Shown: positions 34,944-42,587 of the stretch, in pieces
How the letters are laid out: every line of letters starts with the position of its first letter
How positions within the stretch are numbered: the first letter of the stretch is position 1
IMG/VR virus record: IMGVR_UViG_3300030098_004409
Coordinates: 1-64,000 of that record
Source: a virus
DNA: 64,000 nt
Direction: 5' to 3' (one strand)
Made by a program: the position numbers and the translations under genes
Notes under the pieces: model-generated
What the model was told of the DNA's origin: nothing
The model's database searches: none
Seen by the model: the letters and a program-made list of their open reading frames with translations, nothing else

Positions 34944-35957
34944 ATGTTAGTTACTTATATACGTAGCTCTAGTTACAACAACTTTGAATATTGTCAAATG
35001 CAATACTTTATGACCTATGTTTTGGGTCACCAAAGTGTGTCTGGCAAAAAGGCTCAGCTAGGAACGGTTGTCCATAAAGTTATGGAAGTTCTAGCTGGCT
35101 GCAAAAAACTACACCAAGACAAGGCCGAGCTATTGCTTGAGGATGACGCTATCGGAGAGGTCGAGTTCACTAAACGTAAACTCGGAACAAAGAAATTTGT
35201 AAACGAAATCCTTAAGCGTAGCTACGACCATTACACATCTAACTGTACTCATCATTACACTAATGCTGATTATAAGTTTTGTGACAAAACAACTTGGGAA
35301 GCGTTGACCTATGATGATGGAATCTTTGATCCTCGCAACAGAAATATTGTAGCGGCTGAACCACAATTTGATATTGCTATAGAAGAGGACTGGGCCAAAT
35401 ATGAGTACGATATGCCAGACGGAACTACCGTTGAGGGTCGGCTAGCTATTAAAGGCACTATTGACTTAGTGACCGAAGTTGATGACGGAGTTATCGAAGT
35501 TATCGACTGGAAGACGGGGCGCAGACTTAACTGGGCTACAGGAGAAGAGAAGACTTATGAGAAGCTGTGTAAAGACCCACAGTTAATGCTGTATCATTAT
35601 GCAATTTCTAAGCTTTTCCCTGAATATGAAGATGCGATTATGTCGATATACTTTATCAGGGATGGTGGGCCGTTTAGTATTTGTTTTGAGGAAAGCGACA
35701 GACAAAAATTCTTAGGCATGCTCAAAGATAGGTTTGAAGAAATTAAGAAAACAACTAGACCAAGAATGTTATCCAGAAACCAGTCTCACTGGAAGTGCCA
35801 AAAGCTTTGCGACTTCTGCAAAAAAGACTGGCCCGGAACTAATGAAAGCATGTGTAGGCATGTAAGCAATCACTTAGATCAGTTTGGGATGCTGGATACA
35901 ATACAGAACTGTACAAGAGAAGGATTTGATGTTGGATATTATGAGGCACCGGGATAA
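34944..35957 (+). CDS. PD-(D/E)XK exonuclease (AddB/Cas4-like, probable Fe-S)
   Basis: GTVVH, GTIDL, IDWKTG, QLMLY; an N-terminal Cys plus a C-terminal Cys cluster. Confidence 0.85.
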   Translation: MLVTYIRSSSYNNFEYCQMQYFMTYVLGHQSVSGKKAQLGTVVHKVMEVLAGCKKLHQDKAELLLEDDAIGEVEFTKRKLGTKKFVNEILKRSYDHYTSNCTHHYTNADYKFCDKTTWEALTYDDGIFDPRNRNIVAAEPQFDIAIEEDWAKYEYDMPDGTTVEGRLAIKGTIDLVTEVDDGVIEVIDWKTGRRLNWATGEEKTYEKLCKDPQLMLYHYAISKLFPEYEDAIMSIYFIRDGGPFSICFEESDRQKFLGMLKDRFEEIKKTTRPRMLSRNQSHWKCQKLCDFCKKDWPGTNESMCRHVSNHLDQFGMLDTIQNCTREGFDVGYYEAPG

Positions 35958-36457
35958 TGATTGAAATAAAAATTACAGAAGAAATGAAGAAGCGCGCTTG
36001 GGCTAAGTCTAGAGAGATGGGTGTAATACGCAACTCCATCATGAAGGGCGGCGGAAATATTGCAGGTTTTTTAGGAGAAGAGGTTGCAAACGTAGTTATT
36101 GATGGTACAATTAATAACACATATGATTACGACATAGTTTCTAAGTCGGGTATCAAGTACGATGTCAAGACAAAGAGATGCACCTCAGAACCTAAACCGT
36201 TCTACGAGTGTTCAGTTGCTAATTTTAACACAAAACAAAAATGCGACAGGTACGCATTTGTTAGAATTGAAAACAAGAACAAGCGATGGGGCAGAGCTTG
36301 GGTCTTAGGATGGCTAGAGCACGATGAATATTTTGAGAAAGCCAAGAAATTGACTAAAGGCCAGATAGACCCTTCCAATGGCTTTATCGTTAGGGCTGAC
36401 TGCTACAATGTTGCAATCTCAGATTTAAAAAGATTTAGACACAGAAAGACTAAATAG
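35957..36457 (+). CDS. Conserved phage protein, restriction-endonuclease-like fold
   Basis: GFLGEE...YDYD...DVKTK. Confidence 0.6.
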   Translation: MIEIKITEEMKKRAWAKSREMGVIRNSIMKGGGNIAGFLGEEVANVVIDGTINNTYDYDIVSKSGIKYDVKTKRCTSEPKPFYECSVANFNTKQKCDRYAFVRIENKNKRWGRAWVLGWLEHDEYFEKAKKLTKGQIDPSNGFIVRADCYNVAISDLKRFRHRKTK

Positions 36458-36467
36458 GATTACTTGA

Positions 36468-38039
36468 ATGAGCTGGACTCCTTTAAACGTAAAAACTCAC
36501 TTCAGTCTACAGCGAGGCTTCTCAAAGCCAGACAAGTTAGCCAAGAAGTGTAAAGAGTTTGGATACAAAGCGTGCGCAATCACTGATATTAACACTATAT
36601 CAGGGGCAGTTACATTTTACAAAGAGTGCAAGAAGAACGATATTAAGCCCATTATGGGATGTACTCTAGAGTTTGATAACGGCAAAAAGAAAACTGTTAT
36701 CGCTAAGAATAAAGCTGGCTGGTATGCGCTGATTGACCTTGTTTCCAAGAAGAATATGTATGAAGATGATGTAGTGTATAAACTAACGGAAGCTTCGCTT
36801 GATAAAAATCTTATCTGCATAGACGGACTAAAGCAATATTCTGCATACTACGTAGAAGAGAATGAGGCAGAGGTTCATAGAATACTTTTGTGTTCAGGTA
36901 TGAAGACTACAATGTCTAAGGTCAAAGGTAAGCTGGACTCTTTCAAGCACTTGAAGCCCTTTTTCTCATCAGACAAGTTTTACTTGCCGACTATAGAAGA
37001 GGTCAAGTCTAAGTACACTGACGAACAGATTGCTATGAGCAATGAAATAGCAGATCAGTGCGAGGAATACGACATTCTGGGCCAGCCAATGCTGCCTGAG
37101 TTCGACTGTCCAGAAGGATACACCGAAGACGAATATCTTAAGCAGCTATGTAGAGATGGTTGGCGAACTTTACTCGCTGAAACTGGCAAGGTAGATGACG
37201 ACCAAAAAAAGCAAGAGTATCTCGATAGAATCAAGAATGAGATGGACGTTATTTTTGATGCTAGTCTGTCTGGATACTTCTTGATCGTTCAAGATATTGT
37301 TAATTTTGTTAGAGAACAGGGTTGGTTGCCGGGTCCGGGAAGAGGCTCTGCAGCAGGCTGCCTGATTTCTTATTTGATTGGTATTACAGAGATTGATCCT
37401 ATTGAATATGATTTAATTTTTGAAAGATTCTACAATGCTGGTCGTAACACTGAAGACCATGTATCGTTACCTGATATTGATTTGGATGTACCAGCAGAAA
37501 AACGTGACGAAGTTATTGGATATATTAAGACAAAATATGGCGAAGATAACGTATCGCAAATGATTACATTTAATAAGTTGCAGGGTCGCGCCGCCCTTAA
37601 AGAAGTAATGAGAATCAATAGTAATGTTTCTTTCTCTGAGATGAATGAGCTTACCAAAAACATTCCTAACGAAGCAGACGTTTCAGACCTTTTAGAGCAG
37701 AGTGGGGAGAAGTCTTTAATTAAATGGACTTTGCTGTATCAACCAGACATTTTAGACAGATGGTGTAAAGTCAACAGCGAAGACGACCTAATTGGGCCTC
37801 TATCATCTGTATTTCAGCAGGCTATGGACATTGAAGGTACTATAAAATCTCAGGGCAAGCACGCTGCTGGAGTGATCATATCATCAAACAAACTAAATGA
37901 AGTTTGTCCGATGGTGCAAGACAAAAATAATAATCTTGTCGCCGGCTTTGAAATGGGAGACCTCGAAGAGCAGGGGCATGTTAAATTCGATATATTAGGT
38001 ATTGACCTATTAAGTAAAATAATGGAGATAAAAGAATGA
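36468..38039 (+). CDS. dnaE: DNA polymerase III alpha, N-terminal part (degenerate PHP + palm/thumb)
   Basis: GPGRGSAAG, FERF, PDIDLD, GKHAAG; ends just after KFDILG. Confidence 0.93.
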   Translation: MSWTPLNVKTHFSLQRGFSKPDKLAKKCKEFGYKACAITDINTISGAVTFYKECKKNDIKPIMGCTLEFDNGKKKTVIAKNKAGWYALIDLVSKKNMYEDDVVYKLTEASLDKNLICIDGLKQYSAYYVEENEAEVHRILLCSGMKTTMSKVKGKLDSFKHLKPFFSSDKFYLPTIEEVKSKYTDEQIAMSNEIADQCEEYDILGQPMLPEFDCPEGYTEDEYLKQLCRDGWRTLLAETGKVDDDQKKQEYLDRIKNEMDVIFDASLSGYFLIVQDIVNFVREQGWLPGPGRGSAAGCLISYLIGITEIDPIEYDLIFERFYNAGRNTEDHVSLPDIDLDVPAEKRDEVIGYIKTKYGEDNVSQMITFNKLQGRAALKEVMRINSNVSFSEMNELTKNIPNEADVSDLLEQSGEKSLIKWTLLYQPDILDRWCKVNSEDDLIGPLSSVFQQAMDIEGTIKSQGKHAAGVIISSNKLNEVCPMVQDKNNNLVAGFEMGDLEEQGHVKFDILGIDLLSKIMEIKE

Positions 38040-38848
38040 ATGTTGGAGTAGTTGGTTTAGGTTTCGTGGGTGGAGCCGTAAGCGGATATTTTGAATCATA
38101 TGGCGACACTGTGTATGGCTACGACATTAAATCTGGTCTAGCAATAAACAATGAATACACTAAGATAGTTGAGAACTGTGAAATAATCTTTGTGTGCTTG
38201 CCTACCCCTAAATCTGACGATGGCAGTTGCGATACAAGTATTGTTCATGATGCGTTGTGCAGATTAGATTATATTGCCGGAGAGCTGAGGAAGAGCCCTA
38301 TGGTACTAATAAAGTCTACTTTGGTTCCCGGAACGATCAAAAAATTCGTAGAAGAATCGCACAGTATCCGAGTTATTTCAAATCCTGAGTTCTTAACAGA
38401 ACGAAACGCCGCTGAGGATTATCGGGACTCAAAAACTGTCTTAATTGGAAACGACTACGGCGAAGCAGAAGATTTAGCATTGCGCCTTTTCTTCAGAGAG
38501 CGATGGCCAGCGGCACATATTTATGTTGTCAGCTCCATAGAGGCCGAGTTATCTAAGTACCTTACTAACTCATATTTCTCAGTAAAAGTCTCCGTTGCTA
38601 ATCATATCTACGCCTTATGTCAAGAGCTAGGTGTTGACTATAACAAGTTCATTGAATCAGCAATAGGTGCGGACCCCAGAATCGAAAGAACACACTGGAC
38701 GGTTCCGGGGCCAGATGGAAAGTTAGGTTTTGGTGGATCTTGCTTCCCTAAAGACCTTAGCGGGATGATTCACATTTTAGAAGAAAATAATTTACCTGCG
38801 GATGTTTTTAAGGCCGCTATGGAATATAATAAGAAAGTGAGAGGCTAA
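38036..38848 (+). CDS. UDP-glucose/GDP-mannose dehydrogenase family, short form lacking C-terminal domain
   Basis: GLGFVG, CLPTP, KST, NPEFL, GFGGSCFPKD. Confidence 0.88.
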   Translation: MNVGVVGLGFVGGAVSGYFESYGDTVYGYDIKSGLAINNEYTKIVENCEIIFVCLPTPKSDDGSCDTSIVHDALCRLDYIAGELRKSPMVLIKSTLVPGTIKKFVEESHSIRVISNPEFLTERNAAEDYRDSKTVLIGNDYGEAEDLALRLFFRERWPAAHIYVVSSIEAELSKYLTNSYFSVKVSVANHIYALCQELGVDYNKFIESAIGADPRIERTHWTVPGPDGKLGFGGSCFPKDLSGMIHILEENNLPADVFKAAMEYNKKVRG

Positions 38849-39066
38849 TGGATCATAAATCAGATTACAAATCGGTTCTTTTTTCTGGATGTGCTATCGA
38901 GTACAAAGACATTAGCCTATGCAATTTAGGCAACTACATACCATCTAGGAATGGTATGTCTCGTACTTATCAAGTACACTCTAAGAAGCTAAAATTTAGT
39001 AAGATTTACAAGAATATAGACGATGCAGTTGATAAGTTTTTTGAATTGAAAGGTGCTGTAAGATGA
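38848..39066 (+). CDS. Hypothetical protein
   Basis: TAATG and ATGA coupling. Confidence 0.6.
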   Translation: MDHKSDYKSVLFSGCAIEYKDISLCNLGNYIPSRNGMSRTYQVHSKKLKFSKIYKNIDDAVDKFFELKGAVR

Positions 39067-39521
39067 GAACATATTTAATGAAATCAGGTGATGAGTACAA
39101 AATCGGTAAGGCGAAAACTCCCCATGAGAGGTTGAAAACATTGAAACCCGCAAGACCTGATATTGAGCTATTGGCAGATTGTGATGAGGCACTTGTAAGT
39201 GAAGCTGCATTGCATAAAATGTATTCTAGTAAAAATACTGAAGGCGAGTGGTTTAAGTTGTCTGATGCGGATGTTCGATCTATAACTGAGCTTATGGAGT
39301 CAGATACAACTTTTATGAATCCTACAACTAATGTATGTTATGTATTTCCAGTAGACCTTAGAGACAAAATGCAGATGGTGAGTTCTTTCACAGGACAGTC
39401 ACAAAGTAAAATTGTTGCAGGGCTGGTGACTAATTATTTGGAAGAATTAGACATTAATTTTGACCAATTAATTAAGATAAAATCTAATCTACTAGCGGAG
39501 GTGGCTGGTAATGAACTATAG
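39063..39521 (+). CDS. GIY-YIG-superfamily (T5orf172/MUG113-like) protein
   Basis: YLM...YKIG...RLKTL...EAALH...GEWF; possible ribbon-helix-helix C-terminus. Confidence 0.75.
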   Translation: MRTYLMKSGDEYKIGKAKTPHERLKTLKPARPDIELLADCDEALVSEAALHKMYSSKNTEGEWFKLSDADVRSITELMESDTTFMNPTTNVCYVFPVDLRDKMQMVSSFTGQSQSKIVAGLVTNYLEELDINFDQLIKIKSNLLAEVAGNEL

Positions 39522-40200
39522 AGATATAATTGTATTTGACTTTGAGACTGGGTCTAGAAATCCACATAAAACTCAACCTACCCAAATTGCAGCAATAGCA
39601 CTTCACGGCAGACGATTAACATTACAGCCCGGCGGAGTATTCAATAGCGAGATCAGACCAATTCTTGACGATAAGAAGGCTATTGAGGCAGGATTTGACC
39701 CCATTGAAGATGAAGCCCTTCAAATCACTGGAAAGAACCGCAAGGATTTGGCAAAAGCGCCATCACCGAAGAGTGTCTGGGAAAAGTTTGAGGACTTCTG
39801 TAACAAGTTTAACTTCAGAGGGACTTCTTATACGGCTCCAATCGCAGCTGGCTATAACATCATCGGCTTTGACCTGCCAATCGTCCAAAGAATGTGCGAC
39901 ATGTACGGCACAACTGATTCTAGAGGAAGACAGACTGTATTCAATCCAATTTTCAAGTTAGATTTGATGGATATGGTATTTTCTTGGACTGAGAATAATA
40001 AAGACTTTAAGAGTCTTAGCATGGACTTCCTTAGAGAGTATATGGGTTTTCCTGAAGAGAGCAAGCAGAACGCTCACGATGCCCTGCAGGACGTTAAGGA
40101 CACGGCTAACATATTGATTAAGTTCTTAAAGTTCCAACGTAATATTTCAGAAAAGACTAAGTTTGAGAAAGCATTTGCAAATGGCGAATTCTACGTTTAA
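39511..40200 (+). CDS. DEDDh 3'-5' exonuclease (DnaQ-like)
   Basis: FDFETG, GYNIIGFD, HDALQD. Confidence 0.88.
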   Translation: MNYRDIIVFDFETGSRNPHKTQPTQIAAIALHGRRLTLQPGGVFNSEIRPILDDKKAIEAGFDPIEDEALQITGKNRKDLAKAPSPKSVWEKFEDFCNKFNFRGTSYTAPIAAGYNIIGFDLPIVQRMCDMYGTTDSRGRQTVFNPIFKLDLMDMVFSWTENNKDFKSLSMDFLREYMGFPEESKQNAHDALQDVKDTANILIKFLKFQRNISEKTKFEKAFANGEFYV

Positions 40201-41740
40201 TATTGACAACTTTAATGATGATAAAACTTGGGATCTAATCTGTGAAGGATATACCAAAGGAGTCTTCCAGTTAGAATCTCAGCTCGGTAGATCTTGGGCA
40301 AAAAGAGTACGCCCAAGAAATATTGAAGAGCTAGCTGCATTAATTTCGCTTATTCGTCCCGGCTGTCTAAAGGCTTTTACGGAAGGTAAGTCGATGACAC
40401 AACACTATGTTGATCGTAAGGCGGGTATTGATGAAGTAAAGTATTTACATGACAGCCTTGAGCCAATCCTCAAAGAGACATTTGGGGTTCTCGTATACCA
40501 AGAGCAGTCTATGAAGATAGCTCAACAGCTTGCTGGTTTTGACCTGAAAGAAGCGGATAATCTAAGAAAAGCTATTGGCAAGAAAAAAGCTGGTCTTATG
40601 GCTGAAATTAAAGGCTCTTTTGTGCAGGGTGCAACCGACAAGGGTATTGATGAAGAGACATCAGAAGAAATATTTGGATGGATTGAAAAGTCAAACAGGT
40701 ATGCGTTTAATAAGTCACACGCTGTTTCATATGCCGTCAACGCATACAGAAGCGCCTACTGCAAAGTTCATCGACGGGTTAGGTTTTTTGAATCTTATCT
40801 TAATCACGCCCAGAGAAAGCCAGATCCTCAGCAAGAAATAAAGGAATTAGTATCTGATGCTAAGCTTTATGACATAGAGGTATTACCTCCTAGAGTTGGT
40901 CATTTCTACACAGACTTTACTGCCAATGGGGACAAGATATATTTTGGTATCACAAACGTAAAGGGTGTTGGTACTGCTGAGTCTAGGAAGATGCTTGATT
41001 TAATCCCTCAAATAGAGAAGAGGCTCGGCAAAGACTTCTCAGAATTCACTTGGCTAGATACGCTTTTGACATTAGGCTTCAAAGTAAACAAGACATGCAT
41101 GGAGTCTTTAATAAGTGTTGGAGCTTTTAACGGCAAAAAGAACCGCATGCATAGAAATGAGATGATGTATGAGTATAAAAGCTACAGGAGTCTTTCACAG
41201 AGAGAACGAGAGTGGCTAAGCGAAAACTATAACTCAAATGACACGCTAATCTACGCTATAGATAATATGATAAATAACCTAAAGATAAATTCAAACAGGT
41301 TAATTAAAGTATTTGATATTAGAAATATGATCGACTCTCCGCCATTTGATTTGACTGATCACGAAGGATGGATAGCGGACACAGAGAAGAAGTATATGGG
41401 CACTTCACTTACCTTTTCAAAGACTGATGGTATACAGAGCTCTCTAGTAAATTGCACATGTAAAGAGATTATTAACGGTAGAACTGGTAAGGTTAATGTT
41501 GCTGTTCATATTAATTCTTTGCGGGAGTATGTTACTAAAAACGGCAAAAATCCCGGTCAAACAATGGCTTTTTTAAGCGTAGAAGACTCTAGCGCTACTC
41601 TGGACTCAGCCGTTATGTTTCCCGATGCATACGATGAGTTCAAAGGTATCATGTATGAGGGCAACACAGTACTATTATTCGGTCAGGTTTCCAAGAAAAA
41701 AGATACCAGTTTAATAATTAACAAAGTGTCTGAAGTATAG
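40181..41740 (+). CDS. dnaE: DNA polymerase III alpha, C-terminal part (fingers, HhH, OB)
   Basis: GVFQLES, RPG, YQEQ, LRKAIGKK, YAFNKSHA, VKGVG, MAFLSVED. Confidence 0.93.
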   Translation: MANSTFNIDNFNDDKTWDLICEGYTKGVFQLESQLGRSWAKRVRPRNIEELAALISLIRPGCLKAFTEGKSMTQHYVDRKAGIDEVKYLHDSLEPILKETFGVLVYQEQSMKIAQQLAGFDLKEADNLRKAIGKKKAGLMAEIKGSFVQGATDKGIDEETSEEIFGWIEKSNRYAFNKSHAVSYAVNAYRSAYCKVHRRVRFFESYLNHAQRKPDPQQEIKELVSDAKLYDIEVLPPRVGHFYTDFTANGDKIYFGITNVKGVGTAESRKMLDLIPQIEKRLGKDFSEFTWLDTLLTLGFKVNKTCMESLISVGAFNGKKNRMHRNEMMYEYKSYRSLSQREREWLSENYNSNDTLIYAIDNMINNLKINSNRLIKVFDIRNMIDSPPFDLTDHEGWIADTEKKYMGTSLTFSKTDGIQSSLVNCTCKEIINGRTGKVNVAVHINSLREYVTKNGKNPGQTMAFLSVEDSSATLDSAVMFPDAYDEFKGIMYEGNTVLLFGQVSKKKDTSLIINKVSEV

Positions 41741-41754
41741 TATAATGCTATAAT
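41718..41754 (+). promoter_or_regulatory. sigma70-type promoter(s) upstream of ssb
   Basis: TTAACA-17-TATAAT(41741) and an overlapping extended -10 TGcTATAAT. Confidence 0.6.
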
Positions 41755-41785
41755 CTCTTATAGTCTTAATTTAATAGGAGGTTTA

Positions 41786-42115
41786 ATGAATAATTGTACT
41801 TTAATAGGAAGGTTCGTAGCTGATCCCACAATAAGGGACGTTGGCAAGACAAAGCTTGTTACTTTTTCTTTAGCTATCGAAGAGTACAGAAGAGACAAAG
41901 ACGGCAATAAGAAAAAACGTGTTGACTTTTTTGACTTTGAAGCTTGGGATACTGGAGCAGAAACAATAAATGAGTTTTGTAGCAAGGGAGATATTATAGC
42001 TGTTAATGCATCTGCCCGACAACAGAAATGGACTAATTCAAATGATGAACATAGGCAAAAGGTAGTTTTTCGTGTCCAAAACTTTAGAATATTCTCAGGC
42101 AGAGAAAATGAGTAG
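41786..42115 (+). CDS. ssb: Single-stranded DNA-binding protein, no acidic tail
   Basis: MNNCTLIGRFVADP...FSLAI...FFDFEAW...KG; AGGAGG SD. Confidence 0.9.
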   Translation: MNNCTLIGRFVADPTIRDVGKTKLVTFSLAIEEYRRDKDGNKKKRVDFFDFEAWDTGAETINEFCSKGDIIAVNASARQQKWTNSNDEHRQKVVFRVQNFRIFSGRENE

Positions 42116-42587
42116 TGTAGAAGCTCAAGTTGACGAAAATTTAGATATTATTATATATCTTATAGCAGAATTCAACAACACAACAGATACACATGATTTT
42201 GAAGATCTACTACAGGTAGGTTTTTTAGGTATGCTTAAGGCTATAAATAACTTTGATGAAGATAAAGGTAATCTAAGGGATTACATTTTTTGTTCGGTTA
42301 GAAACTCTCTTATAAAGTTTCTTAAGAAAGAACTGCAATGGAAAGAGAATATAAAACTAGAACCAAATATCTCTCCCGACTGGAACGATAATTATGACAT
42401 CATGGAATTTGACAACATACTAAAGTCTTACGCTAATAAACTTATACCCCTTGAGAGAAAAATACTAGAGCTTAGATTTAGTGGTATGACGAGAAAACAA
42501 ATATGCGAGGAAACCGCATTGACAAAGAACGAATACTATAGTTTTTTATACTCTGCAATAGGAAAGATTAAAAAATATGAAGCGTAA
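42108..42587 (+). CDS. sigma70-family sigma factor
   Basis: EDLLQVGFLGMLKAINNFD (region 2); ERKILELRFSGMTRKQI (region 4). Confidence 0.8.
   Translation: MSSVEAQVDENLDIIIYLIAEFNNTTDTHDFEDLLQVGFLGMLKAINNFDEDKGNLRDYIFCSVRNSLIKFLKKELQWKENIKLEPNISPDWNDNYDIMEFDNILKSYANKLIPLERKILELRFSGMTRKQICEETALTKNEYYSFLYSAIGKIKKYEA

Follow-up and report, generated by a model that had tools for sequence, protein, structure and literature searches.

The viral genome recorded in IMG/VR as IMGVR_UViG_3300030098_004409 encodes the catalytic subunit of a C-family replicative DNA polymerase (DnaE, or Pol III alpha) in two separate genes, here called dnaE-N and dnaE-C, with a gene for a DnaQ-like DEDDh 3'-5' exonuclease lying between them. 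The stretch analysed, hereafter the window, is the first 64 kb (64,000 nucleotides) of this metagenome-assembled viral record of 110 kb, which was judged 71% complete. The arrangement is a conserved module of a large, mostly marine phage lineage, and we regard it as likely that dnaE-N, the exonuclease and dnaE-C together constitute a three-gene replicase whose chains reassemble non-covalently.

A first-pass annotation of the window had proposed that dnaE is divided between two genes 2.1 kb apart, the first of them ending in KFDILGIDLLSKIMEIKE, and both open reading frames (ORFs) are indeed there (Table 1), in different frames of the + strand, which carries all the ORFs across 33-44 kb. DnaE is thus not encoded as a single polypeptide, and Pfam divides its domains between the two products. 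The first, whose gene stops about 15 residues past the KFD motif, consists of a PHP domain (PF02811, E 1.4e-22, residues 6-116) followed by palm and thumb (DNA_pol3_alpha, PF07733, E 7.5e-72), and has all three catalytic aspartates, its PDIDLD and KFD motifs aligning with PDFDVD and KFD of Escherichia coli alpha (D401, D403 and D555). The second, read from the ATG at 40181 (N-terminus MANSTFNIDNF..., with an alternative in-frame TTG at 40163), contains the fingers (DNA_pol3_finger, PF17657, E 8.8e-47), recognisable by the motifs GVFQLES, RPG, YQEQ, LRKAIGKK and FNKSHA and aligning to Taq alpha 650-949, and an HhH domain (HHH_6, PF14579, E 5.5e-9). The anticipated separation of the catalytic aspartates from the fingers and the HhH domain, on different chains, is therefore upheld by Pfam and by the alignments.

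When the halves are aligned to the solved E. coli alpha, residue 516 of the N-half falls on residue 563 and residue 17/18 of the C-half on residue 592, the corresponding positions on Taq alpha being ~628 and 650. These positions place the cut in the palm-fingers linker, at about residues 570-575 of E. coli alpha. If the N tail is placed directly before the C head, the two are collinear with the uninterrupted linker of P0160, P0178, P0261 and other unsplit members of the clade, and with that of a gut-phage DnaE, no segment being extra and none missing.

The same layout recurs widely. IMG/VR was scanned with the N-half as query, which gave 58 loci, and with a family alignment, which returned 80 of at least 519; 81 non-redundant loci, with N-half identities of 52-99% and with both halves and the gap visible, were kept, and the exonuclease gene lies between the halves in every one of them (81/81). 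A further scan, with a profile of the most basal split N-halves and with hidden Markov models of the three proteins for scoring, brought 14 more split loci with gaps of up to 5.8 kb, again with the exonuclease between the halves in 14/14, together with 59 unsplit viral dnaE loci, none of which has this exonuclease within 6 kb. Overall, the association of split and exonuclease thus stands at 95/95 split loci versus 0/59 unsplit ones. The first-pass annotation had spoken of a heterodimeric C-family replicase: its two-gene split stands, whereas the word heterodimer is probably too narrow for what this association makes a three-gene module.

Wherever a locus is long enough for both halves, they are found together, with unchanged order and orientation, and what varies is the size of the gap (0.64 to 5.8 kb across split loci). 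The smallest gaps, of 644-660 nucleotides (nt), contain the exonuclease gene only, with stop-start overlaps of 1-23 nt at both the N/exonuclease and exonuclease/C junctions; at the opposite extreme, in the basal relatives L242 (7884-13644) and L276 (7974-11455), with gaps of 5.8 kb and 3.5 kb, the exonuclease gene is still inside. The break site itself, which the first-pass annotation suggested looking for in related phages, recurs not only in these approximately 95 non-redundant loci but also in protein collections: in a representative library of 1.84 billion proteins, 142 of the 150 top-ranked proteins (39-59% identical, these nearest relatives being 50%-identity cluster representatives) stop 19-37 residues past KFD. 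A word-indexed protein search returned more than 5000 relatives of 287-916 amino acids (aa), the best 120 of which have PHP and/or palm domains only and are almost all 515-550 aa long. In the collections searched, the lineage appears restricted to viral and metagenome contigs, without a cultured representative: a scan over the genomes of 185,579 prokaryote species gave matches to cellular DnaE only (27-36% identical) and did not turn up the split form in a prophage, and the nearest named phage matches are less than 37% identical and unsplit where checked.

Such recurrence bears directly on the view that the split is damage or artefact, that is, a decaying pseudogene, a mis-assembly or a chimeric contig. 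The window does derive from a metagenome-assembled viral contig, and surveys of bacterial DnaE have taken fragmented genes for sequencing errors (PMC3919608), but chance and an assembly error are both excluded by the recurrence of one break in approximately 95 non-redundant, independent contigs from many samples, to which thousands of N-half-only proteins can be added. Nor is either half decaying. The PDIDLD and KFD motifs of dnaE-N and the fingers motifs of dnaE-C are invariant in 30-sequence alignments, and the ratio of non-synonymous to synonymous substitution rates (dN/dS), taken from comparisons of close relatives in which synonymous sites are unsaturated, is 0.005-0.017 for dnaE-N, 0.011-0.017 for dnaE-C and 0.003-0.025 for the exonuclease gene, so purifying selection is strong on all three genes. 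With both halves intact at a dN/dS of about 0.01, damage or artefact is exceedingly improbable.

Another account has the halves rejoined into one active chain, through a group I or II intron, cryptic split-intein trans-splicing, or ribosomal bypass or frameshifting. It has some appeal, in that introns and inteins commonly interrupt phage polymerase genes, that relatives from the same family have inteins within the N-half or terminal split-intein N parts elsewhere, that 'fractured' split-intein dnaE genes exist in marine metagenomes (PMC2677866), and that the end of the exonuclease gene overlaps the start of dnaE-C, with a +1 relation between the two frames. We nevertheless consider it very improbable, on evidence that touches each of these routes. 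Neither half gives an intein/Hint match in Pfam, although intein-bearing relatives do. Split inteins have an N-intein part of 88-105 aa plus a C-intein part (PMC2677866), for which there is no room here, because the N tail and the C head match the unsplit linker residue by residue. No spare residues are left, and the first-pass annotation was right to call no intein. Its view that there is no intron either is likewise borne out: Rfam has no match at E <= 1 over 35500-42500, and the gap is coding sequence under purifying selection, in which no structured intron RNA was detected. As for frameshifting, a fusion of the exonuclease to dnaE-C was considered and rejected, since their overlap is not conserved (many loci have them 8-1020 nt apart) and dnaE-C has its own start. 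That it keeps such a start behind inserts means that there is no obligatory frameshift fusion with the exonuclease. In the window, the dnaE-C ATG has a purine-rich GAGAAAG on its 5' side and a 20-nt overlap with the end of the exonuclease gene. An exonuclease-DnaE fusion was also sought among longer proteins, where none was found (one 430-aa protein matches RNase_T only), and this absence argues weakly against a fused ancestor.

Other members of the same DnaE clade are interrupted in other ways. Full inteins sit in the PHP or palm of the N-halves P0163 and P0194, an intein interrupts the fingers of the unsplit P0216, and in P0159 and P0233 the sequence closes with an N-intein part behind the fingers, which resembles the split-intein 'fractured' genes; this is one polymerase lineage with several kinds of interruption. 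A separate case is P0266 (762 aa), in which the N-half is extended by a YpsA/SLOG domain, circularly permuted (PF12694, E 1.6e-35), either a real fusion or a gene-calling artefact.

The exonuclease has the marks of the DnaQ type, with DEDDh motifs (D10 and E12 in DxE, D121, and H189 and D194 in HxxxxD) that are invariant in 30 sequences, and AlphaFold 2 (AF2) gives it a confident DnaQ fold with a predicted local distance difference test score (pLDDT) of 88. Confidence drops over the last dozen or so residues (block mean from 71 to 53), in a tail (approximately residues 215-229, window 40150-40200, ending in ..KFEKAFANGEFYV) that has a motif conserved clade-wide, F-E-K-A-F-A-N-G-E-x-Y-V. This pattern would fit a partner-binding, candidate docking peptide, by analogy with E. 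coli, in which a C-terminal segment of epsilon binds the PHP domain of alpha. The PHP domain of dnaE-N (window 36468-37130) has no HxH metal motif, and in the subclade of the window this domain has about 90 residues fewer than it does in most split relatives (dnaE-N of 523 aa versus ~600-640 aa). Self-proofreading by the PHP domain is therefore unlikely, and proofreading would fall to the DEDDh exonuclease.

How these parts most likely work together can be outlined as follows. A Pol III alpha-type subunit, cleanly cut in a surface linker between palm and fingers, is made as separate chains translated from one translationally coupled gene string, and these chains would reassociate through the native palm-fingers interface. 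The N chain has the three catalytic aspartates and the C chain the fingers, an HhH domain that binds duplex DNA and an OB-like end, while proofreading would be assigned to the separate DEDDh exonuclease, which probably joins as a subunit to give the phage replicative polymerase core. What the analysis shows is the anatomy, conservation, selection and collinearity described above, with neither intein residues nor an intron detected; what we infer is physical assembly of the chains, their stoichiometry and a place for the exonuclease as a stable subunit.

The genomic context is in keeping with a replicative role. Just 5' of the module is a gene for a DnaB-like helicase, and its other neighbours are a primase-like gene (called from sequence alone) and genes for a dNMP kinase, a PHROG-annotated exonuclease and a single-stranded DNA-binding protein (SSB); no terminator-like site was seen on the + strand between 33 and 43 kb. 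No gene for PolA or PolB was found in the 110-kb record, and the split DnaE is the only polymerase seen in it, within a replication module.

This context also helps to judge a further possibility, that the two chains have separate functions and share no active site, the N chain working for example with another partner and the C chain as a DNA- or clamp-binding factor. Nothing direct speaks for it, except that gap cargo of up to 5.8 kb makes close spacing of the halves inessential. Their constant co-occurrence, order and orientation in loci long enough to show both, the retention by both of the residues required for one catalytic centre, and the lack of a second polymerase gene in the record speak against it, as does the fact that in DnaE structures (2HNH, 2HPI) a palm that lacks fingers offers no site for nucleotide binding. 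Separate functions are thus improbable, and non-covalent reassembly of the chains into one polymerase is the reading that we retain. Several points do count against it: (i) the OB fold (PF01336), which the first-pass annotation had also given to the second chain, is matched weakly and below threshold (19.6 bits against a Pfam cut-off of 27), (ii) no beta-clamp gene was matched in the 110-kb record, (iii) with the record ~71% complete, another polymerase gene could lie outside it, (iv) the binding of the N to the C chain is something that we infer, and (v) a few relatives of the same clade are unsplit (P0160, P0178, P0261 and P0216), so that the split is not obligatory for this type of polymerase.

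These unsplit relatives also matter for the origin of the module. In trees of the palm region, split forms and seven unsplit forms make up one clade apart from unsplit outgroups (98 in the Shimodaira-Hasegawa-like approximate likelihood ratio test, SH-aLRT). In free trees the unsplit forms are nested in at least three places among the split forms; despite this nesting, a single origin without reversal is not rejected, as holding all split forms as one clade gave p = 0.147 in an approximately unbiased (AU) test. A viral locus scan with P0160 as query returned interrupted relatives only, at no more than 59% identity. Among histories that range from one split with later re-fusions to several independent splits, the association of the exonuclease gene with all 95 split loci and none of the 59 unsplit ones favours one ancient event in which this gene entered the linker. 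A bolder proposal gives the exonuclease a larger role, as the cause of the split and as a component that it cannot do without: a dnaQ-like gene, inserted once in ancient times in the palm-fingers linker of a phage dnaE, would have created a three-chain core (alpha-N/epsilon-like/alpha-C), the proofreader docking at or near the break, perhaps via its conserved, flexible C-terminal tail, and the N-exonuclease-C order being kept for ordered, stoichiometric, co-translational assembly, which would turn the module into a separate-chain counterpart of PolC with its embedded exonuclease. We put this forward tentatively, as rather unlikely.

The 2.1-kb gap in the window holds three genes besides the exonuclease gene (Table 1). 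As the first-pass annotation had it, the gap is filled by intact, coupled ORFs, of which there are four, with a stop-start overlap at every junction.

Table 1. Genes of the split dnaE locus, in window coordinates
Feature	Position	Strand	Product	Basis of assignment
dnaE-N	36468-38039	+	523 aa; shortened PHP, palm, thumb; PDIDLD and KFD catalytic Asp motifs	Pfam, alignment to E. coli/Taq alpha
UGDH-like gene	38036-38848	+	270 aa; NAD-binding and central domains	Pfam PF03721, PF00984; PHROG 9148
o72	38848-39066	+	72 aa; between dnaE-N and exonuclease in one large subclade	Position conservation
T5orf172/MUG113 gene (GIY-YIG-related, homing-endonuclease-like)	39063-39521	+	152 aa	Pfam PF13455, PF10544; weak PHROG homing-endonuclease match
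DnaQ-like DEDDh 3'-5' exonuclease gene	39511-40200	+	229 aa	Pfam RNase_T PF00929, E 2.3e-14; PHROG 192 'DNA polymerase exonuclease subunit'
dnaE-C	40181-41740	+	519 aa from ATG 40181; fingers, HhH, OB-like C-terminus	Pfam, alignment to Taq/E. coli alpha

The UGDH-like protein is without the C-terminal UDP-binding domain and is under purifying selection (dN/dS 0.037). Its gene, found in only ~7 close relatives, corresponds to a precise 810-bp indel between the stop of dnaE-N and the start of o72 (three-way DNA alignment, versus L002). In the same kind of alignment, the T5orf172 gene is a precise insertion of ~450 bp at the junction of the o72 stop and the exonuclease start; it occurs in this genome only among the loci compared, and as a single copy in the 110-kb record. 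On these alignments, both genes are later cargo at gene junctions and do not belong to the module. The small gene o72 has 59 distinct homologues at the same position and a dN/dS of 0.025. No match to it was found in Pfam, PHROG or PDB sequences, nor by Foldseek against PDB at E <= 0.001, and in its AF2 model (pLDDT 86), which predicts a helix, four strands and a helix, the best fold match, to YkuJ, has a Z of 6.2, within the range common by chance.

Relatives with larger gaps have their extra ORFs on either side of the exonuclease gene, among them Endonuclease VII-type HNH ORFs, ORFs bearing a helix-turn-helix (HTH) and a formyltransferase. HNH ORFs of this type lie between the exonuclease gene and dnaE-C in L071 (9498-9878) and L110 (9247-9645), and similar ones are present in L075, L088, L092, L103, L108, L125 and L130. 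Several begin with the residues that open dnaE-C elsewhere (..KRHLQMAN..), and the original dnaE-C start apparently now serves them, dnaE-C having gained a new ATG and ribosome-binding site (RBS); behind an insert, dnaE-C has its own ATG, with a purine-rich, RBS-like stretch upstream in most such loci. The slot of the UGDH-like gene is occupied in L006 (6841-9042) by three ORFs that, judged from their N-terminal sequences, resemble sugar-nucleotide enzymes (epimerase/dehydratase-like, cupin-like and RmlD-like), after which 26 aa remain of the UGDH end. At this slot, glycan-related cargo is swapped, perhaps in connection with the glycan island at 42.5-61 kb, and the junctions within the module look like reusable insertion slots in general. 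Directly 5' of dnaE-N, a 166-aa ORF (35957-36457) has no match in Pfam or PHROG; a homologue of it is found inside the L111 module, between dnaE-N and the exonuclease gene (L111:8625-9125), which means that this gene moves around the locus.

The lineage suggests that DnaE tolerates a permanent cut between palm and fingers, apparently across thousands of abundant ocean phages. It might therefore (i) offer a natural two-piece Pol III alpha for the study of palm-fingers communication, (ii) serve as a test case for whether gene order in an operon directs the assembly of a multi-chain enzyme, and (iii) provide a rule for annotation, namely that virome genes annotated as 'DNA polymerase III alpha' but of half the length are not fragments.

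C-family polymerases are treated as single-chain catalytic subunits, and in the literature searched, whose coverage leaves out most subscription journals, the DnaE splits described are intein-mediated only and no intein-free one was found. Among cultured phages, Bacillus phage vB_BceM_WH1 (LC597490.1) and Clostridium phages CS266P1-4 (OP172775-8) have a dnaE whose annotation shows two pieces or an intervening 'DNA endonuclease', at other gene positions, and they appear to be separate instances in which a phage dnaE was interrupted. The closest parallels are the Ssp/Npu DnaE of cyanobacteria and the marine 'fractured' dnaE (Dassa et al., 2009; PMC2677866), in which, as in the window, a C-family catalytic subunit is encoded by two genes, and in the 'fractured' case the pieces are also side by side with a gene between them. 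Those systems rely on protein trans-splicing by N- and C-intein parts and are cut at other sites, whereas the phage proteins have no intein residues and are cut in the palm-fingers linker. The constant intervening gene also differs, being that of a free-standing homing endonuclease in 'fractured' dnaE and of a DEDDh exonuclease in the phage lineage, where the candidates for a free-standing homing endonuclease between the pieces are the T5orf172/MUG113 gene of the window, seen in no relative, and Endonuclease_7 ORFs in some relatives.

Unsplit phage genes show a related neighbourhood. Pseudomonas Pbunavirus Epa25 has a DnaE-type polymerase with an annotated 3'-5' exonuclease gene, located immediately upstream rather than inside, and in Vibrio phage VA-RY-3 a small gene upstream of dnaE, annotated only as hypothetical, may be a similar case; in both, dnaE is unsplit, encodes 930-1035 aa and is 25-27% identical to the N-half of the window. 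Intein-free fission into two cooperating chains is known from family B, in the split gp43 (43A/43B) of T4-related Aeromonas phages, where mobile DNA lies between the halves, and in the split PolB of Methanothermobacter. Those cases are confined to a narrow phylogenetic range, whereas the present one spans a very large clade and has a replisome gene nested in the break. The chimallivirus PhiKZ has a family-B polymerase whose DNAP-N and DNAP-C form a stable 1:1 complex (PMC13648687), another phage replicative polymerase made of two chains and a precedent for an intein-free one; the family is B there and C here, and assembly is experimental there and putative here. There is also a likeness to PolC of Firmicutes, in which a DnaQ-type exonuclease is embedded within the coding region of a C-family polymerase; in PolC, the exonuclease forms a domain of a single polypeptide, inserted in PHP, whereas these phages encode it in a gene of its own between palm and fingers.

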